Numbered from the stretch's first letter, positions 1 to 14,481 are shown. The stretch is 15,722 nt of DNA from a virus (IMGVR_UViG_2602041549_000013:1-15722); one strand, 5' to 3'. Numbers and translations are program-made. The notes: generated from the sequence alone by a model not told the origin.

Positions 1-1059
1 TTATGCTCCGGCTTCTGCGGCGGCGGCGCTGAAGTCGCCAATCTGGATGTTTTCCACCAGTGCTGCGCAGCGGTAGTCCTCAACCACATAGGCTTCGTTA
101 ACGGATTCAAAGTTTTCAATCCGGTCACGTTTCGGGTTGTCGATAACCGAACGGCGGCGGGTGTCCTCCTGCCAGTAAATGGACAGGTTATCCAGACGGG
201 TGATCAGCAGCGCATTCGGCGGGAAGAACGGCGCACGCACGGCCTGCAGACCACCCATGCGTTTCTGACTGATGATCATATCGGCAGCCAGTTTTTCACT
301 GTTTTCCTGCTCTTTGTTGACCAGCGGGAAATACTTGTCAGACAGCAGTTCACGCCCGCAAATCACCACCAGATCGTCATCGTCCTGGTAGACCACGTCG
401 ATAAGCTCATTGACCGCATCCATCACCACAGCGTCCAGGTTGGCATATTCGCCACCTTTCCCGACTTTCACCGCACCCGGTGTGGTTTCGCCGCCCGTGG
501 TGGTGCTGCCCATGACGTGATCCGGTGCATCCTCACGGATTTTCTGCAACCAGCCTTTGTTCACATCCTGCAGCAGCGGGTTTTCACTACGGTTGGAGGT
601 TTTCGCACGCTTCACGCCGTTAAAGCCGATCATGATGCGGTCCAGTGCCTGACGTTTCACGATGGCGTCACGGATACGCACCTGGAAATCCTGAAACTTC
701 GCCCACAGGTCCAGCTTCGCGTAGGTCAGCACCGTGTCAAAGTTGGTCTGCTCGCATTTATATTCCACATCGACCATCAGCGTCGGATCGACAGGTTCAC
801 GCTCTTTCGCGGTGGTGTCAGTGGTTCCGGCAATGGTGCTGCCAACACCCAGCCCCAGCAGCTGACCGGACTGCTCAGTCACTGGCGTGACGTTAATCAG
901 CGTCAGGAAAGCGGCGGACTGCTGGATCTGGTCTTCCAGCGTCTGCTGCACAGACGGCTCCACAGTGAATTTGCTGGACAGTTCTTCAACTGCCACACCG
1001 TTCAGACGCGCCAGCTGCTGCAGGTAAGCGTTAAAAGCAAAGCGGGTATTCTTCTTCAT
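1..1059 (-). CDS. N: major capsid protein (P2 gpN-like), 352 aa
   Basis: Full ORF with ATG at 1059 and stop at 1-3; size and position immediately downstream of the scaffold gene match P2 gpN; recognised from the translated sequence. Confidence 0.85.
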   Translation of the reverse strand: MKKNTRFAFNAYLQQLARLNGVAVEELSSKFTVEPSVQQTLEDQIQQSAAFLTLINVTPVTEQSGQLLGLGVGSTIAGTTDTTAKEREPVDPTLMVDVEYKCEQTNFDTVLTYAKLDLWAKFQDFQVRIRDAIVKRQALDRIMIGFNGVKRAKTSNRSENPLLQDVNKGWLQKIREDAPDHVMGSTTTGGETTPGAVKVGKGGEYANLDAVVMDAVNELIDVVYQDDDDLVVICGRELLSDKYFPLVNKEQENSEKLAADMIISQKRMGGLQAVRAPFFPPNALLITRLDNLSIYWQEDTRRRSVIDNPKRDRIENFESVNEAYVVEDYRCAALVENIQIGDFSAAAAEAGA

Positions 1060-1075
1060 CAGGTTTTGTGCTCCA

Positions 1076-1909
1076 TCAGCAATTGGTCAGAGTGTCAGCG
1101 GGGGCGTTACCGCCTGTTGCACGCTGGCGGTAGTCCTGGCGGCTGTCTTCTTGACTCAGCTTATTCACCAGTTCGTTAAAGGCGGTTTGCTGCTCCTGCA
1201 GAGCAGTCTCCAGCTCAGACAGGCGTTCTTCCTGCTCAGACAGGGATTTTTCTGTGCGTGCGCTCAGGTTCTGCTGCTCAGTGGCGACCAGCTCCACGGC
1301 CTTATGCACATCAGAGAACCGGGCGTCATCGGACTGCTCTTTTTTGGTAAACAGCGCCGTGACACGGGCAAACAGGGACGGCTTGTCCTCCTGGATTTCT
1401 TCCAGTTCGATCACCGTTTCCTCTGCAGCGGTAAAAAGATTGGCGGGATTCTGCTTGCGGTTTGCCAGTGGGTTATGGGCTGCACTGGCGCTGAATGTCA
1501 GCATTTCAGTGCCCAGACTGGCAGGGTCATCAGTGGCAGCCAGGCCGACCAGGTAGGCTTTGCCCGTATCAGCGAACTTCGGGCTGACTTCCATAGAGGT
1601 GAATAATTTCTGGCCTTTTTTCACCAGTTCCACCAGGGACTCCGTTGGCTCAACGTCGGCATACAGCGCCATCTTGCCTGCCAGCGGACCTTCCGTGATT
1701 TCTTCAGCAAACAGCGCCGTCACCTTGCCGTAGCGGTTAAAGGTGCTGTCCGGCAGATAAGACTTGATGTGCTCAAGGTTAATCAGCGCGGTATACACCG
1801 CCGGGTTGTAGCTGGCTGCCATCTGTTCCAGCCATTCACGCTGGATTTCGCGTCCGTCGGTGGTGGCACCTTCCACCCCGATGCGAAAACGCTTTGTTTT
1901 CACTGTCAT
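1076..1909 (-). CDS. O: capsid scaffolding protein (P2 gpO-like), 277 aa
   Basis: ORF divergent from the terminase gene; acidic coiled-coil-like C-terminal half (EQ-rich) typical of scaffolds; position O then N as in P2. Confidence 0.8.
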   Translation of the reverse strand: MTVKTKRFRIGVEGATTDGREIQREWLEQMAASYNPAVYTALINLEHIKSYLPDSTFNRYGKVTALFAEEITEGPLAGKMALYADVEPTESLVELVKKGQKLFTSMEVSPKFADTGKAYLVGLAATDDPASLGTEMLTFSASAAHNPLANRKQNPANLFTAAEETVIELEEIQEDKPSLFARVTALFTKKEQSDDARFSDVHKAVELVATEQQNLSARTEKSLSEQEERLSELETALQEQQTAFNELVNKLSQEDSRQDYRQRATGGNAPADTLTNC

Positions 1910-1987
1910 GAGCCGTGCTCCGTTAGAAAAAACTTACTGGAGCCTTATGGTTGCGGTGATGGGGGCAGTGAAACAATGCGCGGTATT

Positions 1988-2005
1988 TGTACCGACAACC
2001 ACACA
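1988..2005. promoter_or_regulatory. TGT-N12-ACA dyad in the divergent O/P intergenic region; candidate Ogr/Delta-type late-promoter activator site
   Basis: Sequence TGTACCGACAACCACACA seen directly; P2-family late promoters are known to carry a TGT-N12-ACA element centred near -55. Its centre is about 55 nt upstream of a plausible start for the - strand O operon. Confidence 0.3.
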
Positions 2006-2051
2006 AATCGCAGGCGGGGAAAGCCTTCATTCAAGGCTGTAGGTTTGTGCC

Positions 2052-3818
2052 ATGAACACCACACTGACACCCGCAGATCTCGATCCCCGTCGGCAGGCCA
2101 TGCTGCTGTACTTTCAGGGATACCGCGTAGCCCGCATTGCTGAAATGCTGGGCGAGAAAGTTGCAACCGTTCACAGCTGGAAAAAACGCGACAAGTGGGG
2201 TGACTATGGGCCGCTGGATCAGATGCAGCTCACCACCGCCGCACGCTACTGCCAGCTCATCATGAAGGAGCATAAAGAAGGGAAAGATTTCAAAGAGATT
2301 GACCTGCTGGCGCGCCAGTCTGAGCGCCACGCGCGGATCGGCAAGTTTAACAATGGCGGCAACGAAGCCGACTTAAACCCTAACGTCGCCAACCGCAACA
2401 AAGGCCCACGCCGTCAGCCTGAAAAGAATGTTTTCACCGATGAACAGATTGAGAAGCTGGAAGAAATTTTCCATTCCTCCATGTTCAACTACCAGCGCCA
2501 CTGGTGGGAAGCCGGAAAAACCAACCGCATCCGCAACCTGCTGAAGTCACGCCAGATCGGCGCGACCTTCTATTTTGCCCGTGAAGCCCTGATTGACGCC
2601 CTGCTTACCGGACGTAACCAGATTTTCCTTTCTGCCAGTAAGGCACAGGCCCACGTCTTCAAACAGTACATCATCGACTTTGCCAAAGAAGTGGAGGTGG
2701 AGCTGAAAGGCGATCCGATGGTGCTTCCCAACGGGGCCACACTGTATTTCCTCGGCACCAATGCCCGCACTGCCCAGAGTTATCACGGCAACCTGTATCT
2801 GGATGAATATTTCTGGATACCGAAATTCCAGGAGCTGCGCAAAGTGGCTTCCGGTATGGCTATTCACAAAAAATGGCGACAAACCTATTTTTCCACGCCA
2901 TCCAGCCTGACACACAGTGCTTATCCGTTCTGGTCCGGTGCGCTGTTCAACCGTGGGCGCAACAAAGCCGATAAGGTGGACATCGACCTGTCCCACAGCA
3001 ATCTGGCCCCCGGCCTGCTGTGCGCAGACGGGCAATACCGCCAGATAGTCACCGTGGAAGATGCAGTGCGCGGCGGATGTAGCCTTTTCGACCTCGATCA
3101 GTTGCGCATGGAGTACAGCCCGGACGAATACCAGAACCTGCTGATGTGCGAGTTTGTGGACGATCTCGCGTCCGTGTTCCCGCTCAGCGAGCTGCAGGCA
3201 TGCATGGTGGACAGTTGGGAAGTCTGGACCGACTTTCATGCTCTGGCCCTGCGCCCGTTTGGCTGGCGCGAAGTGTGGATCGGTTATGACCCGGCAAAAG
3301 GTACGCAGAACGGCGACAGCGCCGGATGCGTGGTGGTGGCACCGCCAGCCGTGCCGGGCGGTAAGTTTCGCATTCTTGAGCGTCACCAGTGGCGCGGGAT
3401 GGACTTCCGCGCCCAGGCTGACGCAATCAAAAAACTGACCGAGCAGTACAACGTGACCTACATCGGCATCGACTCAACCGGCGTTGGTCACGGGGTTTAC
3501 GAGAACGTGAAAGCGTTCTTTCCTGCCGTCCGGGAGTTTGTCTACAACCCCAACGTTAAAAACGCCCTGGTTCTCAAGGCCTACGACATTATCAGCCACC
3601 GCCGTCTGGAGTTTGACGCCGGATATACCGACATTGCGCAGTCATTTATGGCAATCCGTCGCGCCACCACCGCCAGTGGCAACCGCCCGACCTATGAAGC
3701 CAGCCGCAGCGAAGAAGCCAGCCACGCCGATCTGGCATGGGCAACGATGCACGCACTGTTTAACGAACCGCTGCAGGGCGAATCCGCCAATACCAGCAAT
3801 ATTGTGGAGATTTTTTGA
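2052..3818 (+). CDS. P: terminase large (ATPase) subunit (P2 gpP-like), 588 aa
   Basis: Long ORF divergent from O; size and N-terminal sequence consistent with P2 gpP; its stop overlaps the start of the portal gene. Confidence 0.85.
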   Translation: MNTTLTPADLDPRRQAMLLYFQGYRVARIAEMLGEKVATVHSWKKRDKWGDYGPLDQMQLTTAARYCQLIMKEHKEGKDFKEIDLLARQSERHARIGKFNNGGNEADLNPNVANRNKGPRRQPEKNVFTDEQIEKLEEIFHSSMFNYQRHWWEAGKTNRIRNLLKSRQIGATFYFAREALIDALLTGRNQIFLSASKAQAHVFKQYIIDFAKEVEVELKGDPMVLPNGATLYFLGTNARTAQSYHGNLYLDEYFWIPKFQELRKVASGMAIHKKWRQTYFSTPSSLTHSAYPFWSGALFNRGRNKADKVDIDLSHSNLAPGLLCADGQYRQIVTVEDAVRGGCSLFDLDQLRMEYSPDEYQNLLMCEFVDDLASVFPLSELQACMVDSWEVWTDFHALALRPFGWREVWIGYDPAKGTQNGDSAGCVVVAPPAVPGGKFRILERHQWRGMDFRAQADAIKKLTEQYNVTYIGIDSTGVGHGVYENVKAFFPAVREFVYNPNVKNALVLKAYDIISHRRLEFDAGYTDIAQSFMAIRRATTASGNRPTYEASRSEEASHADLAWATMHALFNEPLQGESANTSNIVEIF

Positions 3819-4855
3819 TGGGAAAGAGTAAGAAGAACCGAGCTGCGGCGACGAAACAGATCCAGCTTAAAAGTCAAACTACAGCCGAAGCATTCAGCTT
3901 CGGCGATCCCGTTCCTGTTCTGGACCGCCGTGAACTGCTGGACTATGTGGAATGCGTACAGATGGACCGTTGGTATGAGCCGCCCGTCAGCTTTGACGGA
4001 CTGGCGCGCACCTTCCGCGCCGCCGTGCATCACAGTTCCCCGATTGCAGTAAAGTGCAACATTCTGACCAGTACCTATATCCCTCATCCGCTGCTCAGCC
4101 AGCAGGCTTTTTCGCGTTTTGTGCAGGACTATCTGGTATTTGGTAACGCCTACCTGGAGAAACGCACGAACCGATTCGGTGAAGTTATCGCCCTTGAGCC
4201 TGCCCTGGCAAAATACACCCGACGTGGATTAGACCTGGATACCTACTGGTTTGTGCAATACGGCATGACAACGCAACCGTATCAGTTCACGAAAGGCAGC
4301 ATTTTTCACCTGATGGAACCGGATATCAACCAGGAGATCTACGGCCTGCCCGGTTATCTTTCTGCCATTCCGTCAGCCCTGCTCAACGAGTCCGCCACGC
4401 TGTTCCGTCGAAAGTATTACATTAACGGCAGTCATGCAGGCTTCATCATGTACATGACCGACGCCGCGCAGAACCAGGAGGATGTAAACAACCTCCGTAA
4501 CGCGATGAAAAGCGCCAAAGGACCAGGTAACTTCCGCAATCTGTTTATGTACTCGCCTAACGGCAAAAAGGACGGACTTCAGATCATCCCATTGTCAGAA
4601 GTCGCGGCGAAGGATGAGTTTCTGAATATCAAAAATGTCAGCCGCGATGACATGATGGCAGCGCACCGTGTGCCACCGCAAATGATGGGGATTATGCCGA
4701 ATAATATTGGGGGGTTTGGGGATGTGGAGAAGGCAAGCCGTGTATTCGTCCGAAATGAGCTAATGCCACTACAAAAGCGATTACAGGAGATGAATGATTG
4801 GCTTGGCAAGGAGGCGATACGGTTTGATACCTACTCGCTAGATATAGCCCCATAA
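3818..4855 (+). CDS. Q: portal (capsid completion) protein (P2 gpQ-like), 345 aa from ATG 3818
   Basis: ATG at 3818 overlaps the P stop TGA (ATGA coupling); the ORF track starts 3 nt earlier at a TTG. Size and position match P2 gpQ. Confidence 0.85.
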   Translation: MGKSKKNRAAATKQIQLKSQTTAEAFSFGDPVPVLDRRELLDYVECVQMDRWYEPPVSFDGLARTFRAAVHHSSPIAVKCNILTSTYIPHPLLSQQAFSRFVQDYLVFGNAYLEKRTNRFGEVIALEPALAKYTRRGLDLDTYWFVQYGMTTQPYQFTKGSIFHLMEPDINQEIYGLPGYLSAIPSALLNESATLFRRKYYINGSHAGFIMYMTDAAQNQEDVNNLRNAMKSAKGPGNFRNLFMYSPNGKKDGLQIIPLSEVAAKDEFLNIKNVSRDDMMAAHRVPPQMMGIMPNNIGGFGDVEKASRVFVRNELMPLQKRLQEMNDWLGKEAIRFDTYSLDIAP

Positions 4856-4857
4856 TA

Positions 4858-4884
4858 AGAAAAGCCACCGTTTGGTGGCTTTTC
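4858..4884. terminator. bidirectional intrinsic terminator between convergent Q and the kinase operon
   Basis: GCCACC-GTTT-GGTGGC hairpin flanked by an A-run upstream and TTTTCTTC downstream, lying between the Q stop (4855) and the - strand stop at 4890. Confidence 0.6.
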
Positions 4885-4889
4885 TTCAT

Positions 4890-5630
4890 TTACTCAATAG
4901 GTTCAAACTCATCTTGAGGAATCAGCGTCGATTGACAGGCTTGGCTTAGTACCCCTGATAATTTACATAATAACCGATAGTTATGAGGAGCATCATCGCT
5001 AATCTTTTCGACCGTTAAAGTGATTGATTTTGGATCATCCAATAACATCTTCTTGATGTCATTACTTAAATACCTAGGGCAGTAACCAACGATTTCAGCT
5101 GGTTTATCTGCACGAACGACAACAGCATCCCCATCGTATTCATTTTGAAGATCCAAGCAAAGACGCAAAATTTGCCCCGGTTTCAATTCAGATACACGAG
5201 CATTAGCTAAGCTATTCAAGTAACCAAGTCCATGTAAGAAGAAAAAATGCTCAAAGTTACCATCAGAATCAAAATCAATTTTTTTGAAAATCTGCAGCTG
5301 ATCAGTGCTTCGTAAGCCTCCCGAGCGAGCAAGAATATCGATAGGATTTACCTTATCTTCTTCAAATCCAAGCCATTTAATGAAACTCGGATACTCTGGA
5401 CGTCTCGGTGATAAAAGGCGATTTTTAAAAAGAGGAAACAATTCTTCCGATACATAAGTTTCACGAACATCACTCATGCCGCTAAACTTTGTAAATTTAG
5501 AAGATTTAAGAGCACCTTTGGTATACCTGAAAACATACCCCGATTTGCGCTCTTGCAAGTTACCAACAACATGCCAGTCTCTGGTATCTGGTGCCTGCCA
5601 TGCGACGTAAACGGAGTTTGTATTAGTCAT
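4890..5630 (-). CDS. kinase partner protein, 246 aa: N-terminal HipA-N/HipS-like region (approx. aa 1-110) fused to a HIRAN-like domain (approx. aa 125-215)
   Basis: Start ATG overlaps the kinase stop (ATGA at 5627-5630). N-terminal VVGNL...YVFRY...LFPLFKNRLLSPRRPE resembles the HipA N-subdomain-1 / HipS pattern; C-terminal LGYL...LKPGQILRLCLDLQNEYDGDAVVV...VGYCPRYLS resembles the HIRAN pattern. Domain calls are from motif memory, not a search. Confidence 0.5.
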   Translation of the reverse strand: MTNTNSVYVAWQAPDTRDWHVVGNLQERKSGYVFRYTKGALKSSKFTKFSGMSDVRETYVSEELFPLFKNRLLSPRRPEYPSFIKWLGFEEDKVNPIDILARSGGLRSTDQLQIFKKIDFDSDGNFEHFFFLHGLGYLNSLANARVSELKPGQILRLCLDLQNEYDGDAVVVRADKPAEIVGYCPRYLSNDIKKMLLDDPKSITLTVEKISDDAPHNYRLLCKLSGVLSQACQSTLIPQDEFEPIE

Positions 5631-6541
5631 TCTAGTAACCTTCTGCGATTTTCCATTACCATTAACGTTGCAAATCTACGTGCACTGTCGGATATACACG
5701 ATGAAGGCACTTGGTTAAACACATCTGTAATGGAATCTTCTGTTAAAACGCTCAACTTACCTAACCAATGGTCGCGAGCGGCAACTCTCCCTTCAACTGC
5801 ATGTTGAAATGCTTCAACAGTCAGCAAGGGCTTTTTATCAGTTTTTGCTTTGAATAGCTCAGAGCGAGCTTTTCTTACAAAACATGGGATTTGTCGATTT
5901 TTATCTTTAGTATTAAGCCGTTCGCTACGCTCATCATCTAACATCTCCCTTCCTAAACTAGCGGCATGATCGTATGTTGGACACAAAAACTGCTCACCAG
6001 TTTCATTGTTAAGCATGATTGCCCAATTTTCATGGTGGCGATCTTGATTACTCACAAGTGCATCGAGCATCAAATATCCACAAAATACATCTGCTGCATT
6101 TAGCCCGGTTAGATCATATACACTCGGAGGAGGCTTGATAGATTCCCTATCTAAACAACCCAAGACCCTTGTGACAGTGTGTTCTCTGACCCTTACCGGC
6201 TTTTCCCCGGCTTGTAAAGGCCCAGGATAATCGAATGTCGAACTGTGAAGCACTTCATTTCCCATTACCATCCGGAAACCAGATGGAATGATATTCTGAG
6301 TCACCACACCGAATCGACCATTGTATCGCGCCAAATCATAGCTAGCATGTGGAATGTTAAGCAAATGACATAACTCAGCAGCACACTTTTCAGACCAATG
6401 CTCGCCAGTACCTGGCCTAGAGTACTTAAACAACTGCAAATTTACAGTGTCATCGGAGAAATAGAACCAAAACTTCTCTTTGGTTCCTAACTGTTCAAGA
6501 TCGTTAGCTACGGGGCTAAGCTCTACCAATTGGTATGGCAT
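5627..6541 (-). CDS. short HipA-family (HipT-like) Ser/Thr protein kinase, 304 aa
   Basis: Gly-rich loop GTKEK near the N-terminus (aa 19-23); catalytic motif D167-R-H-H-E-N172 and downstream LCPTYD191 match the HipA catalytic and Mg-binding aspartate motifs. Region is visibly AT-richer than the phage backbone. Confidence 0.75.
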   Translation of the reverse strand: MPYQLVELSPVANDLEQLGTKEKFWFYFSDDTVNLQLFKYSRPGTGEHWSEKCAAELCHLLNIPHASYDLARYNGRFGVVTQNIIPSGFRMVMGNEVLHSSTFDYPGPLQAGEKPVRVREHTVTRVLGCLDRESIKPPPSVYDLTGLNAADVFCGYLMLDALVSNQDRHHENWAIMLNNETGEQFLCPTYDHAASLGREMLDDERSERLNTKDKNRQIPCFVRKARSELFKAKTDKKPLLTVEAFQHAVEGRVAARDHWLGKLSVLTEDSITDVFNQVPSSCISDSARRFATLMVMENRRRLLE

Positions 6542-6693
6542 CTGACATCCCTGTTTAGCGGATTATGAATAAGTTAGGTTCCATTTTATCCAAACATTGT
6601 CAAATACCCTAAGATTTATTAGATGATAGAGCGATACTGTATGCATGTCCAGCAATCAAATCAATATATAACTCTTATATGGCTTAACGCGCG

Positions 6694-6712
6694 CTCGTAT
6701 CCCCGCCACGCC
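6694..6712. other. candidate cohesive-end (cos) site
   Basis: Reverse complement GGCGTGGCGGGGATACGAG shares its first 13 nt with the 186-type cohesive end as I recall it (GGCGTGGCGGGGAAAGCAT); orientation and position beyond Q are as expected. Recalled sequence, not verified. Confidence 0.35.
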
Positions 6713-6761
6713 TGCCCGCTTTATGTAGTGGTTTTCATGCAGGTGCATGATCTACGCAAAA

Positions 6762-6781
6762 GCCCGCCAGTTCTGGCGGGC
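6762..6781 (-). terminator. perfect 9-bp stem hairpin next to the cos candidate; possible - strand terminator or part of the cos/terminase region
   Basis: GCCCGCCAG-TT-CTGGCGGGC; on the - strand it is followed by TTTTGCG. Confidence 0.35.
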
Positions 6782-7054
6782 CTTAGCAAAAACGATCCTC
6801 AAACGATCATGCAATCTCATGCAGCATAGACATGCACAGACGAGTAAAGCGAATCGGACTTTACGCAAGGTGAACTCCTCAGCGGGTATAATCAGTATGT
6901 CGGAAAATCTCTAAAAATAAATAATTCGGTTAACAGGTATGCTTACAAAAGCATATATTTGATTAAAAATCATGTAAGGGGGAGGATCTCAAACTGAATC
7001 GCCACGGGTTTTGCAAATTTCGATAGTCTCTCTAACGTTTCGGCTGAGGTCAAA

Positions 7055-7480
7055 ATGAAAAGCTTTTACGTATTAATTTTAATTCTGGTTGCAAGCTTTG
7101 TTAGCGTCCCAGTTCAGGCGGTAACAGCTAAAAACTATGAGAAAGGAACTAAAGCTCAACAGAAATCAATAGCTTACCTTTCATGTGCATTCTATGGCAG
7201 TAGCACACAATTAGATCCTAGCTACACGGGGCAAGTACCTACAGCCGATATCAAGATATTACAGAAAGCAGCTTACCACGCTTACAACGATGCGCTCTCA
7301 TACTTAGGCTATGAGGAACCAGATCACGAACAACGCATAATTGATTATGCTGAATTTGTGGCGTCGCAAGAAGCTGTGTTATGGGATAAGCCGGGAATGA
7401 ATGGAAAGCAGGTAACACTAATTGCTCGTTCTCTCTACAATGAGAGTAACTGTAACTTGTTACTGGACTCAATTAAGTAG
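7055..7480 (+). CDS. secreted protein of unknown function, 141 aa, with a cleavable signal peptide
   Basis: RBS GAGGT upstream of the ATG; N-terminal MKSFYVLILILVASFVSVPVQA with AxA-type cleavage site; two Cys in the mature part; AT-rich gene and upstream region. Confidence 0.55.
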   Translation: MKSFYVLILILVASFVSVPVQAVTAKNYEKGTKAQQKSIAYLSCAFYGSSTQLDPSYTGQVPTADIKILQKAAYHAYNDALSYLGYEEPDHEQRIIDYAEFVASQEAVLWDKPGMNGKQVTLIARSLYNESNCNLLLDSIK

Positions 7481-7639
7481 GAAAAAGATGGTATTTTGCC
7501 CGTAGTTTCAACCTTAATCTCCGAACCTGTCGCAGAACGGGCGTTCACTCATCAAATAAACGCCACACCTAACGCCTCACTGTACTCGTTGTTCAACCTT
7601 GCTGACGCCAGAACCAAGTTCAGACGCCAGCAACTTTTC

Positions 7640-7873
7640 TTAATGCAGCCAGCTGTCGTCTTCCCACACCTTCTGCATAATTTTCATCACTTGTTTTCTT
7701 TCTTCGTCCAGTTGCAGTCCGGTCAGTTCCACACCGTTAGAGCTACCTTTGCGGATGCGAATTACCGTTTTGGGATACAGGGGGCGCAGATTGCGGTAAA
7801 GCTCTGATTCAAGGGCGTCCAGGGTAGACTGGTTAATCTTCTGCTCTTTATCGATCATTATTTCAATGCGCAT
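7640..7873 (-). CDS. DinI-family protein, 77 aa from ATG 7873
   Basis: MRIEIMIDK...LDALESEL...YP...WEDDSW aligns with the E. coli DinI pattern; GAGGTG RBS 6 nt upstream of the ATG; the longer ORF-track start at 7945 is not used. Confidence 0.8.
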   Translation of the reverse strand: MRIEIMIDKEQKINQSTLDALESELYRNLRPLYPKTVIRIRKGSSNGVELTGLQLDEERKQVMKIMQKVWEDDSWLH

Positions 7874-7883
7874 AAAAGTCACC

Positions 7884-8072
7884 TCAACTGATGACATCCA
7901 TTGAGCGGTTGTATTCGTGAGTTCTGATTTTTGCCATGAGTTCATCAGTCAACTCAGAAACCCACTGCAGAGCCAGCCCCTTCTCTTCATCACTACACTC
8001 ACTAGCCGCTACAAGCTTAAGAAAAAAATCAATGCGCTGGAGCTTCAAAGACTCCAAAAAATAGTCCTGCAT
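7884..8072 (-). CDS. small SOS-regulated protein, 62 aa; possible Tum-like antirepressor
   Basis: First gene downstream of the LexA box; AGGAGG RBS before ATG 8072; forms an operon with the DinI-like gene. The 97-aa version from 8177 would contain the LexA box and is rejected. Function is inferred by position only, by analogy with the 186 tum operon as I recall it. Confidence 0.45.
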   Translation of the reverse strand: MQDYFLESLKLQRIDFFLKLVAASECSDEEKGLALQWVSELTDELMAKIRTHEYNRSMDVIS

Positions 8073-8113
8073 CTTTCCTCCTATGACACCACACGCAACA
8101 CTGTATGTATAAC

Positions 8114-8133
8114 CACTGTTTATATTTACAGTA
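8114..8133 (-). promoter_or_regulatory. LexA (SOS) box in the promoter of the small-ORF/DinI operon
   Basis: CACTGTTTATATTTACAGTA has a perfect CTGT-N8-ACAG core and matches 17 of 20 positions of the consensus TACTGTATATATATACAGTA; an extra CTGT half-site at 8101-8104; a TTTACA -35-like hexamer lies at 8151-8156 on the - strand. Confidence 0.7.
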
Positions 8134-8225
8134 TATAATAATCTTACTGATGTAAAACGTTTTTTTACATTCATCACCCTGATATACCTGGTATTATTAA
8201 GAGCACGAATTGTTAACCCGCGTAA

Positions 8226-10640
8226 TTAATACAGGTTCCGCCACTGATCATCTTCCTGCAAACGCTGGTTCCGATAGAAGATACGCAGGCCTGCTCCTGA
8301 CGGAATACTGCCTCCGCGAAGGAGTAAATCGACCTCTTTCTCGCTGCCATCAAATCCTCTGGACTTCAGCTCATACACGAGCTGCAGTCGCTGATGGTCT
8401 GTAATTCGCTGTTTGTAGTCTTTACGCCGTTTCGGTTTCACCAGGCGTAACCTTGCAGCCAGTTCCCGGCGCTCTTTTTTGCTCATACTGTGCAGGTAAT
8501 CGTGCAACTCCTTGTCATCCATGCGGGTAATGTCCGTTCTGGTATCCCCATCAGCTGATTTGTCTTTCCCTTGTTGGTTCAAATTTTCAGCAAGGGGACA
8601 GTTATTGCCACGAGTCCAAGGGGCGCAAGCGCCCTGGTCGGCTGCCGCCTCCTGAACGTCAACGGCCTTACGAACCATTTTCCACTTCACTGCATGAGTG
8701 CAGATCTTGCCCTCTGCAATGGGTGACCAGATGCCATAAATACGAATACCGTGATCGCCATAGGCGGTTGGCTCTTCGTTGATTTCATAAGCGGTTCTGA
8801 TGAGGTGATATTTGCGGGAAACCAGTACGCCGCCCTGCTTCATGATGTAGGTGGCAAAACAACCAGCATCAGCAGCAGCCAGGATGGCATCAAGGCGCGG
8901 GTTATCCAGTACCGGCGCACCTGCTTTTTTGTCACCCTGTTGCCTTGCCGCCTGACCAGCCAGCAATCGCAGTTCACGGTAAGCCTGACGCCCCGGAATG
9001 CCAAAGAAGCGGAATTGCTGAACACGATGCAGAGACGCCCAGGCATTAACGTATTCAGCGTTATCACGCAGGGATTTACCCGTTTCCTTACTGATCTCGC
9101 CAGCCAGACCACACCCGTCAATATTCTTACTGATATATTTCGCAATGTAGCTTGTCGGCGTTCCTTTGCGCGGGTTTATCAGCTCAGACTTAAAGCGTGG
9201 CCCCGTGTTATTGCCCAGCTCCTCGCGGTCTTCACGGATGGCAAACTTACGCAACAATGCAGTAATGGCGCGGCGGTCTTTTTTACGCATGAAACACAAC
9301 AGGTGCCAGTGAACTGTGCCGTCATGATGCGGCTCAGCCACCCGCACGCCATACCAGCGCAACCCGGCTTTGTGCATAGCCTTACGAAATGCAGCAAACA
9401 TGCCGACCAGATAATCGCTGCTTTGTCTTACTGTCGCGTTGGTCCAGGTCGGGTTTGGCCTGCCGTTATTTAGCGTGGAATGGAAACGTGACGGACAGGT
9501 GATGGTGTAGAAAACGGCGCAGTCACCACGCATTTCCGCGATAAGCTCCAGGCCTTTAACACAGGCCATCATCTCATTGCGGCGATGCGCCGGGTTGCTG
9601 CTGCTGGCGTTTACCACATCCTCCATGTTCAGCGTGTCGCCGTCTTCGTTCACCAGTTCATGAGAACGGAAAAACTCCAGCGACTTACGGCGCTGCTCAC
9701 GTTTATGCATCACGGCTTCATAGCTGACATAGGGAGATGCTTTTTTGCTGACCAGGCAGACAGCACGCAACTGCTCTTCCCGCCATTCGCAACGCATCTT
9801 CCATAATTTCCGATACCACCAGTCGGCGCACAGCATACGCGCCAGCGAACCCGGAATGAGTTCATAGGGCACAGGTTTGCGGCGGTTTCTTTTCCGGCGG
9901 AGTTGCTCAAACGCAGGCGGTATGACATCCAGTCGCAGGGTTTCTGCAGCCACCTTTTCCCATGTCTTGCGGATTTCTTCTGGCTTAACATCATCGGAGG
10001 CGTACAAATCACCACAAGCGGCATCAAGACACATGCTCATATGCGCAGCGACAAGGGTAGACAGGCGTTTCACCTGATCCTGACTCATTTCAGGCAGGAT
10101 CAGCAGACCGTCCAGCCCTTCATGGCTTGCCATAAAACGAAAAGATGCAGATAGCTGGCTGTCGCGTACATGCTCCAGTCGTTCCAGACATGGCTTAATC
10201 GTCTCACGCAAATAGCGGGAATAAGCCTTTGGCCTGCCCAGGCTGCTGAAATATTCAATACGTTGCATCAGCGGCTTGCTGATATGGGAAGGCTGGGCGT
10301 TGACGTCGGCCAGAATGACCATGTCCGGATTAAAACGCTGCTGCTCATGCGCCATCTTTGCCCGGCTAATGAGCTTATCCTGCTCCATTTCGCGTTGGAC
10401 AGGATCACGGGATTCATTAAAGAAATAACGCTCCCAGACCTGATCACTCAGTGCCTCGCGGCGCAACTGTTCCTGCTCGTTATCGGCAGCGTACAGAGTG
10501 ATCAGGTTTGAAAGCGTAGAAACCGGCGCAACTTCCGCCGGGTCCAGATAAGGGTTAATGGCCTTTTTCGGGCTGTTCCATGAGAATGCTGCGGCAGCCT
10601 CGTTAAAGCCGCAGCAGTTGTTCATATCGGCATGACTCAT
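8226..10640 (-). CDS. A: rolling-circle replication initiator / endonuclease (P2 gpA-like), 804 aa
   Basis: HUH-type motif VHWHLL and active-site tyrosine motif YIAKYISK typical of gpA-type Rep proteins; start ATG overlaps the dam stop (ATGA). Confidence 0.85.
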
Positions 10641-11494
10641 GCACGTACTCCGTACACGGCAGAACTATCCACGCCACGCGAATAATCAAATCCCATCCAG
10701 CAGCGCGGCCCGGAAACAGCAATGATTTCTGTTGCTGATTTACCCTCGCCAGCTGCCACACCGATGCTGCGTTTTACCTTGATATAGTGGTGAGTAAAAT
10801 TGCGATACAGCGAACGGATCAGGGATGTGTCACTGTTAGAAACAATGACTGGATGTCCTTCTGATGACCGATGTTCAAGAACGGATGCCAGGTGATACTG
10901 GTCATCTTCAGTGAAACCATCAGTGTGATAGCCGGAAAACGTACCGTCATACGGCGGATCGCAATACACCACATCTCCCGCCTTCAACATCGCCAGCGTT
11001 TCATCAAAGCTGGCGCAGATAAACGTTGCTCGCTGGGCTTTTTCTGCAAATGTGCGAAGTTCTTTTTCAGGGAAATACGGATTTTTATAATTACCGTAGG
11101 GGATGTTGAAATGCCCGCTCTTGTTATAGCGACATAAACCACGGTAACCGTGACGATTAAGATACAGGAAATATACCGCTTTCATGAAATCAGTAATTTC
11201 AGTTGAGCAGTTAAACTCCTGCCTTATGTTGTAATAAGCCACCTCCCTGTTTGCGATCTCAAATAAAACTCTGGCGCGAGATATAAACGATTCACAATCA
11301 GCGGCAACCTTTTTATAGAGGTTGATTAAATCAGGATTAATATCCGCAACCAGATAGCTGGGATAATCCGTTTCCATCATCACAGCACAGGAACCCGCGA
11401 AAGGTTCAACCAGTCGCGGGCCAGCAGGAAGGTATTTTTTCAGTTCTGGCATAATGGCGGTTTTATTTCCCGCCCATTTCAGGATGGTGCTCAT
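10637..11494 (-). CDS. dam: DNA adenine methyltransferase (Dam family, orphan), 285 aa from ATG 11494
   Basis: N-terminal KWAGNK and FAGSCAV motifs and catalytic DPPY motif; ATG 11494 overlaps the upstream zinc-finger gene stop (ATGA) and follows a GGAGGTG RBS; the ORF-track start at 11554 is not used. Confidence 0.8.
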
Positions 11495-11718
11495 ACAGCA
11501 CCTCCGTTGTAATGTTTGCCTTTCAGTTCTGCGATTTCCTGACAGGTAATGCAAAGCTGCACTCCCGGAATGGCGCGGCGTCGTGCTGGCGGAATTGGCG
11601 CTTCACATTCAATGCAAAGTACGCGTGACACGCCCGGTGATTTGGCACGGGCTGCACGGATATGGCGCTGGCGTTCTTCTTCAACGCGCTGCTGTACGAG
11701 ATCCATTGCATCAGCCAT
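11491..11718 (-). CDS. TraR/DksA-family C4 zinc-finger protein, 75 aa
   Basis: Two CxxC pairs (CIECEAPIP ... CITCQ) in a small basic protein; common position in P2-like early operons. Confidence 0.7.
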   Translation of the reverse strand: MADAMDLVQQRVEEERQRHIRAARAKSPGVSRVLCIECEAPIPPARRRAIPGVQLCITCQEIAELKGKHYNGGAV

Positions 11719-14289: not shown

Positions 14290-14481
14290 ATGCTTGGTAA
14301 GGTATTTTTTGTGGTTTTGTCATGTTCTTTGTTATTAAACCCACTAACTACCTATGCTAGAAATTATCCCTGCTCAGGGAAAAAGGGAGGTGTTTCTCAC
14401 TGTACCTCAGATGGCAAATTCGTTTGCAATGATGGAACTATTAGTAAATCCAAAAAAATCTGTACTAAAAACTCACGATAA
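14290..14481 (+). CDS. small Cys-rich secreted peptide or lipoprotein, 63 aa, unknown function
   Basis: Strong RBS GGGAGGA; hydrophobic N-terminus with either a signal-peptidase I site (TYA) or a lipobox-like VLSC; four Cys in a roughly 40-aa mature part; AT-rich. Confidence 0.4.

Follow-up and report, generated by a model that had tools for sequence, protein, structure and literature searches.

The Q–A Interval of a 186/Fels-2-Like Prophage as a cos-Proximal Hotspot with Two Likely Cargo Slots and a Candidate Kinase–HIRAN Defense Pair

Introduction

In P2-like prophages, the interval between the replication gene (gpA) and the portal gene (gpQ) is a hotspot of anti-phage genes close to the cohesive-end site (cos), with 1,650 gene arrangements at 18,150 loci according to the parts of Rousset et al. 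(2022; PMC9122126) on which this paper draws, in which Odegrip et al. (2006) is cited for the hotspot and only some of the hotspot systems were cloned. A described module with a related kinase, hipIN, combines the kinase HipI with HipN, a putative antitoxin with two domains, one HipS-like and the other HIRAN (Gerdes et al., 2021; PMC8262856). Here, we describe the interval between genes Q and A in a stretch of viral DNA of 15,722 nucleotides (IMGVR_UViG_2602041549_000013:1-15722), the whole of which was analyzed and is referred to below as the window. This Q–A interval is an instance of the known cos-proximal gpQ–gpA hotspot, and carries a putative kinase/HIRAN pair, a predicted cos site, a gene for a predicted exported protein of 141 amino-acid residues, and a short operon with a DinI-like gene.

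Head and packaging genes of a P2-family phage (N, O, P, and Q) come first in the window, followed by the Q–A interval, replication gene A, the early genes, and an immunity region that precedes the integrase gene. Its nearest relatives are 186/Fels-2-like prophages from Escherichia coli, Klebsiella, and Salmonella (family Peduoviridae), and a related element is present in 1375 of 5426 complete E. coli genomes (about a quarter). The Q–A interval is complete at positions 4856–8225: the portal gene Q (3818–4855, plus strand) has its stop at 4855, and gene A (8226–10640, minus strand) ends at 8226. These borders are defined by the Pfam families Phage_portal, together with the RefSeq annotation of the same gene in the relative L001 (labels of this form denote the loci compared here), and Phage_GPA (E = 6.7e-127). 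The gene order agrees with that of 186, P2, and Fels-2.

Two Cargo Slots Separated by the cos Block

From Q to A, the interval contains the kinase module on the minus strand, a non-coding gap of 513 bases (6542–7054) that includes the cos candidate, the gene for the predicted secreted 141-residue protein on the plus strand, and the small-ORF/DinI operon (ORF, open reading frame) on the minus strand, which is the order given in an earlier note made from the sequence. Alignment with relatives that have other cargo locates the breakpoints of the backbone, and these are reproducible: similarity is lost at 4805–4833, within the last codons of Q, regained at 6685–6688, lost again at 6835–6851, and restored at 7538–7569. 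Slot 1, the Q-side slot, thus spans 4834–6687 (or begins at about 4815 if the last Q codons, which go with the cassette, are counted; BLAST breakpoints versus L002, L005, L006, and L008), and slot 2, beyond cos toward A, spans 6838–7568 (breakpoints 6836–6851 and 7538–7569). Between them lies a backbone segment of 150 bp (6688–6837), termed here the cos block, which is delimited by its identity among relatives with differing flanks. This identity is 94.6–98% in Fels-2 and the compared E. coli relatives, in which both flanks differ, and 73–98% across other genera. Both slots are empty in one E. coli prophage (L005), in which 383 bp separate the portal gene from the DinI gene and the cos block and DinI operon are kept. 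Because the cos block and the SOS operon are retained across relatives, the interval is best described as two slots plus backbone, and an architecture consisting of a known hotspot with two slots, a cos block, and an SOS backbone is highly probable.

The interval is variable among relatives, as the earlier note had supposed: at least 80% of it is common to just 13 of the approximately 1313 E. coli genomes that carry such an interval, and the annotated contents are many. The kinase cassette occurs in 21 of the 5426 complete E. coli genomes, in copies that are all at least 99.2% identical, and the slot-2 cassette of the window in 102. The slots are exchangeable separately, since one and the same kinase cassette is combined with five states of slot 2: the 141-residue gene (the window and L007), a gene for a different protein of 175 residues (L001), IS903B plus a gene for a KAP P-loop NTPase (L092), genes for a SIR2 protein and an ATPase (L094), and an empty slot (L093). 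Conversely, the slot-2 cassette of the window is paired in L006 with a DUF4145 gene in slot 1. One count tells against fully independent slots: the two cassettes of the window occur together in 13 genomes versus about 1.6 expected under independence, and so they are linked though separable. In addition, IS903B, IS1, and IS100/IS21-like elements are inserted in the Q–A interval of several E. coli relatives (for example, L092, 7557–8525).

The extent of slot 1 in the lineage was examined in 52 loci from different species in which both cos and A could be placed. The distance between the portal gene and cos is at least 1 kb in 38 of the 52 and less than 350 bp in eight. Nearly all slot-1 ORFs for at least 90 residues (77 of 80) lie on the strand convergent with Q, and their PADLOC families include, among others, PD-T4-9, PARIS AriA, Old-like ATPase-Toprim, AbiLi, and bSEFIR. 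Slot-2 ORFs match methyltransferases, PDC-M04, and PtuA. Annotations of the interval in E. coli include retrons Ec67 and St85, AIPR, PIN, TIR, DUF262, TIGR02391, SieB, and DprA with PRTase, and GmrSD-like genes are also among the slot contents elsewhere. The "hotspot" would be a pair of slots that are exchanged independently of each other and have the 150-bp cos block as their common anchor, with the Q-side slot as the main one in the 186/Fels-2 lineage.

The Kinase/HIRAN Pair of Slot 1

The cassette in slot 1 is a two-gene operon on the minus strand. The first gene (5627–6541) encodes a putative small Ser/Thr kinase of the HipA family (304 residues), HipI-like and a putative toxin and effector, and overlaps by an ATGA sequence at 5627–5630 with the second gene (4890–5630), which encodes a HipN-like protein of 246 residues, a putative antitoxin and sensor with a HipS-like domain at its N-terminus and HIRAN at its C-terminus. 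Both proteins match over their full length the candidate defense system PDC-M03 in PADLOC (PDC-M03A for the kinase, E = 2.7e-122; the B component for the HIRAN protein, E = 6.8e-93), and both match PHROG families with no assigned function. The kinase motifs NQDRHHENW (DRHxxN) and YDH align with those of the HipA-like kinase CtkA. In the second protein, the Pfam HIRAN domain covers residues 127–228, and although a search of PDB sequences gave nothing significant, a fold search found both the HipS-like and the HIRAN fold. The pair is widespread in Gammaproteobacteria and is kept together in unrelated mobile contexts, in loci of Stutzerimonas and Aliivibrio, and also in L013.

Immediately downstream of Q, a perfect hairpin of 13 bp, with a run of A on one side and of T on the other (4857–4886; inverted repeat I1), is probably a two-way terminator for the P–Q operon and the convergent kinase operon. 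Within the cassette, a consensus scan gives a candidate sigma-70 promoter, TGGACA-17-TATCAT, at 6623–6651 on the minus strand. The scan for promoters and terminators served as a pointer, its counts being at chance level (six promoter-like consensus matches versus 7.8 expected), a point against the present reading of the interval. The separate transcription units proposed in the earlier note are suggested by the strand blocks (minus, plus, minus), with consensus matches as their candidate promoters.

The predicted defense role of the cargo is based on its homology to PDC-M03. A mechanism can be modeled on HipBST and on what Gerdes et al. (2021; PMC8262856) suggested. Inhibition by the HipS-like domain would keep the kinase switched off in the lysogen. 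Infection by a phage would supply a signal, of which DNA ends or single-stranded DNA (ssDNA) bound by the HIRAN domain are the most plausible form, and this would free the kinase. Its target would be an essential translation factor, phosphorylated in the way that aminoacyl-tRNA synthetases are by HipA and HipT, and the resulting growth arrest would abort the infection. By analogy with these modules, such a defense mechanism is a tentative proposal with somewhat less than an even chance, and the more specific idea, an abortive-infection system in which HIRAN would sense free 3′ DNA ends or ssDNA of an invading or replicating phage, is doubtful. If true, it would be a DNA-end-triggered kinase defense, of a kind not known from any Hip module. 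Several observations speak against a defense kinase of the Hip type: the kinase scores 20.9 bits against Pfam HipA_C, under the cutoff of 30.5; a search of PDB sequences with the kinase gave nothing significant; a search of the literature on PDC-M03 and on hipIN, HipN, and HipI found no functional or defense study; and the pair was not found among the validated systems named in the consulted parts of Rousset et al. (2022; PMC9122126).

Alternatively, the pair could be a plain toxin–antitoxin addiction module, which would stabilize the prophage but not act on other phages. The HipA family supplies classical toxin–antitoxin modules of type II (Gerdes et al., 2021; PMC8262856), the pair is also present in other integrative elements, and the missing defense phenotype in the literature agrees with this explanation. 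Its context argues otherwise, because this slot is filled, in sister prophages, by retrons, by PARIS-like and Old-like genes, and by further defense genes, and because the pair constitutes a PADLOC candidate that was defined through defense-island association; moreover, toxin–antitoxin and abortive-infection roles are compatible. A role restricted to addiction is possible, although we regard it as rather unlikely. As a candidate defense system, the kinase and HipS–HIRAN pair is a reasonable target for phage challenge.

The 141-Residue Protein of Slot 2

The gene in slot 2 (7055–7480, plus strand) encodes a protein of 141 residues with a signal-peptide-like N-terminus, which belongs to phrog_7437, a family with no assigned function, and has no match in Pfam, NCBIfam, or PADLOC. 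Its N-terminal hydrophobic segment, which ends in VQA, is conserved, Cys44 is invariant, and Cys133 is present in all five full-length sequences. Homologs are rare, forming only six clusters in 5.8 billion proteins. The predicted structure is a helical bundle of moderate confidence (pLDDT 72), for which Foldseek found no significant match in the PDB.

Homologous genes occur at quite different accessory loci of prophages. In L095 (4001–4426), the homolog lies between gpS (tail completion) and gpV (baseplate) in a P2-like prophage from Hafnia, and in L097 and L098 (4001–4429), it follows a tail-spike gene at the prophage edge, beside host trp genes.

As judged from these sequence features, the 141-residue protein behaves as a mobile "moron" of the lysogenic-conversion type and is predicted to be exported. 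A role at the cell envelope is a guess.

Cassette Exchange and the 3′ End of the Portal Gene

The left border of slot 1 lies within Q. Identity between the window and four carriers of the same cassette (L001, L007, L092, and L094) is 90–96% through Q and rises to 98–100% from about position 4700. Furthermore, the last approximately 15 residues of the portal protein (codons from about 4815) are cassette-specific, with the overall pattern kept. These alignments put the presumed recombination junction on the left side of slot 1 within Q, which is an essential structural gene. In L013, a relative at greater distance, the entire stretch from Q through the cassette to cos is 81% identical to the window, which indicates that the cassette has also been inherited vertically for some time.

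We infer that homologous recombination is the route of cassette transfer: cassettes would be swapped between related phages by recombination in conserved flanks, such that the two crossovers for slot 1 would fall in the 3′ end of Q and in the cos block, respectively, and the cos block would allow the two slots to be exchanged separately. Arrival by transposition or site-specific integration beside cos, rather than by recombination between phages, is improbable. The breakpoints are sharp and IS903B, IS1, and IS100 are present in the region in some relatives, both of which would suit such a process; however, neither cassette of the window contains a transposase or integrase gene, a repeat search of the slot borders found neither direct nor inverted repeats that resemble attachment (att) or target sites, identity changes by a gradual step at the left junction, within a homologous gene, and the C-terminus of Q comes with each cassette in a homologous version of its own.

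Base Composition and the orf62–DinI Operon

As had been claimed from inspection, the interval is AT-richer than the backbone: its G+C content (GC) is 0.419 in 4856–8225, versus 0.551 in 1–4833 and 0.489 in the whole window, and GC at third codon positions (GC3) is 0.33–0.39 in the three cargo genes (kinase, HIRAN, and secreted protein) versus 0.61–0.69 in N, O, P, and Q. The interval is therefore not uniform with the late-gene backbone in either measure. Nor is it uniform in itself. The two slots are similar (GC 0.407 in slot 1 and 0.409 in slot 2), the cos block has a GC of 0.547 and thus is not AT-rich, and the GC3 of the DinI and orf62 genes is 0.51–0.58. A caveat on the composition argument is that the immunity region, which also belongs to the backbone, is just as AT-rich (GC 0.38 for cI).

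Next to A, on the minus strand, lie orf62 (7884–8072; 62 residues; phrog_698, E = 3.6e-38, function unassigned) and the gene for a DinI-like protein of 77 residues (7640–7873; Pfam DinI, E = 2.3e-22). Upstream of orf62, the first gene of the operon, a LexA-type box CTGTTTATATTTACAG (8116–8131; a perfect match to the pattern CTGT-N8-ACAG) lies over a −10-like hexamer, TATACT, and this promoter region is conserved in Fels-2 and in phage Cartapus. From 7569 onward, through DinI, orf62, the box, and A, identity is 94–98% in all compared E. coli relatives, and it is 87% in Fels-2 from 7642 onward; orf62 is annotated in all compared relatives. The operon, which the earlier note had counted as cargo, is thus conserved backbone. 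This holds for the present sub-lineage only, because just 22 of the 52 species-level relatives gave a DinI homolog.

In position and in its DinI part, the operon has a counterpart in 186, in which the tum operon occupies the same place between A and cos. Identity between the DinI-like protein and the C-terminal half of 186 Tum (residues 71–145) is 41% (BLASTP, E = 3e-24), and the LexA site at p95 of 186 is in the same position as the LexA-type box over the −10 region here. In 186, Tum is one protein of 146 residues, whereas the window has two separate small genes. orf97, downstream of tum in 186, is the positional counterpart of slot 2. By this analogy, the orf62–DinI operon would be the SOS-induction module of the phage itself, with predicted control by LexA, and orf62 may be a candidate antirepressor partner, an analog of the N-terminal half of Tum. 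Fels-2 is induced upon loss of LexA via a tum-like gene, which fits the same role for the operon of the window. Three results weigh against the assignment: the LexA-box pattern has a single match in the window versus 0.23 expected by chance, which is not significant by itself; orf62 gave no alignment with Tum and has no similarity to its N-terminal half, the part that only the full-length antirepressor form possesses; and the DinI homolog is limited to the relatives counted above.

Downstream of DinI, the conserved segment 7569–7639 contains a direct repeat, GACGCCAG, at 7595–7602 and 7615–7622, and has no obvious terminator hairpin, such that SOS-induced transcripts may continue across the slot-2 gene, in antisense orientation, up to a GC-rich hairpin followed by TTTT (6756–6787, minus strand; inverted repeat I2) in the cos block. 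Termination of transcripts from the DinI side at this hairpin is possible.

These data bear on the earlier proposal that the whole Q–A interval is one horizontally acquired island of three cargo modules. The overall low GC of 4856–8225 and the three strand blocks agree with it, and a composite interval with variable cargo is indeed what was found. The number and extent of the modules are not as proposed: relatives with other or no cargo keep both the DinI operon and the cos block, DinI shares homology and map position with 186 tum, the GC3 of DinI and orf62 exceeds that of the true cargo, and L005 retains both cos and the DinI operon with empty slots, which contradicts a single island. An island of three modules is thus very improbable, and two slots within conserved backbone is the preferred description.

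The cos Site

The predicted cohesive-end sequence of 19 nt, GGCGTGGCGGGGATACGAG, is at 6694–6712 (minus strand) and was located by homology to the mapped cos of 186; cleavage there, and the exact cut positions, are predictions. When the ends of the 186 record are joined and placed in the orientation of the window, window positions 6700–6778 align across the annotated 186 cos into the right-end flank, and the right-hand flank is 81% identical to that of 186 over 80 nt. Of the 19 positions, 15 are equal to 186 cos: the first 13 nt, GGCGTGGCGGGGA, are identical, and four of the last six positions differ. The GCGCGC on the Q side of the 19-mer in P2 and 186 is the same here, and the A-side flank motif, CATGCA..CATAAAG.GGGCA, is conserved. 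A search of the whole window with the P2 cos 19-mer, allowing up to three mismatches, gave no match, and the site was located solely via the joined 186 ends. An identical 19-mer is present within the "putative cos site" annotated at the start of the record of Cartapus, a close relative, in which a DUF4145 gene sits between the annotated cos and the portal gene. The placement of a cos candidate in the middle of the interval, first made by eye, is therefore well supported by 186 and Cartapus.

Whereas cos is 167–176 bp from the end of the portal gene in P2 and 186 (167 bp in P2), the distance here is 1.8 kb. That the cos call is wrong, the true packaging site lying directly after Q as in P2 and 186 and the kinase pair on the old/tin side, deserves almost no credence: four of 19 positions do differ from 186 and the cut site is predicted here, but no other P2-like cos occurs in the window even at three mismatches, the 19-mer and its right-hand flank both align with 186, the block is kept across genera while both of its flanks vary, and the same sequence is annotated as cos in the Cartapus record.

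Neighboring Genes and Borders of the Window

The start of the portal gene is better placed at the ATG at 3818, which overlaps by one base the TGA stop of P and corresponds to the start in RefSeq relatives, than at the TTG at 3815, directly before it, where the mechanical ORF begins. Positions 1 and 15722 of the window are the exact stop codons of the capsid gene N and the integrase gene, respectively, which indicates that the window was cut at gene borders and that the attachment site and the remaining prophage lie outside it.

Two further ORFs in the interval have no family matches and were judged to be spurious: 6623–6829, which overlaps the cos block, and 7496–7807, which overlaps the DinI gene. 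Scans of the whole window with Rfam and for tRNA genes gave no matches.

Other places in the window may also vary. An ORF for 63 residues (14290–14481, plus strand) between cI and int has a hydrophobic start resembling that of a signal peptide or lipoprotein, is annotated as hypothetical in L001, and has the lowest GC among the genes of the window (0.354). This ORF could be a further small cargo gene, located in a secondary hotspot close to int. Directly upstream of A, a gene for a Dam-type adenine methylase (10637–11494, minus strand) has a GC of 0.46, below that of its neighbors. L093 has an extra DUF3850 gene (11383–11685) between the methylase gene and a TraR-like gene, and 186 has other genes at that place. 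The methylase region of the early operon looks like another variable spot.

Comparison with Known Systems

Among kinase modules, the closest described architecture is that of hipIN/PDC-M03, in which a small HipA-family kinase gene lies upstream of, and overlaps, a second gene, as the putative kinase gene does here. The label "HipI" is used for the kinase of the window on grounds of this architecture, as distinct from placement in the published Hip tree, and the function is putative in both cases. In HipBST of E. coli O127, HipT is the kinase and HipS a separate antitoxin; the pair in the window differs in that it has no gene for a HipB-like helix-turn-helix protein and in that the HipS-like domain is fused to HIRAN.

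With regard to the position of the cargo, accessory genes lie between A and cos in P2 (old, tin) and in 186 (orf97), whereas the larger cargo of the window is found in the segment from Q to cos. With cos at 6694–6712, the kinase pair falls on its Q side, as the earlier note had expected if its cos candidate was right, and in this the pair differs from old and tin of P2. The implication that such a position is unusual does not hold, because a long segment between the portal gene and cos is the norm in this lineage (38 of 52 relatives, as given above) and is also found in Cartapus.

The arrangement as such is already known. Table S5A of Rousset et al. (2022; PMC9122126), in the part used here, has a row "hypothetical + hypothetical + HIRAN + hypothetical + DinI" with the accessions WP_001154434, WP_023568565, WP_000185757, WP_000834899, and WP_001217568. 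These are accessions of relatives of the window: in RefSeq, orf62 of L007 is WP_001154434, its HIRAN protein WP_000185757, and its 141-residue protein WP_000834899, and the kinase of L092 is WP_023568565. The division into two slots by the cos block, the dominance of the Q side, and the cassette-specific portal C-termini were not found stated in the consulted parts of the hotspot papers. These three features, the dominance applying to this lineage, are refinements of a known hotspot and not a new kind of element.

The window thus shares with the hotspot of Rousset et al. (2022; PMC9122126), as described in those parts, the same locus beside cos, its high variability, and its richness in defense genes. 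Whereas that study and later surveys, in the parts consulted, treat the region as one hotspot with no split at cos, the exact slot borders given here mean that hotspot surveys could be split at cos and cassettes delimited precisely. P2-like prophages hold a rapidly exchanged store of anti-phage genes by their packaging site, of which the window is a clean example.

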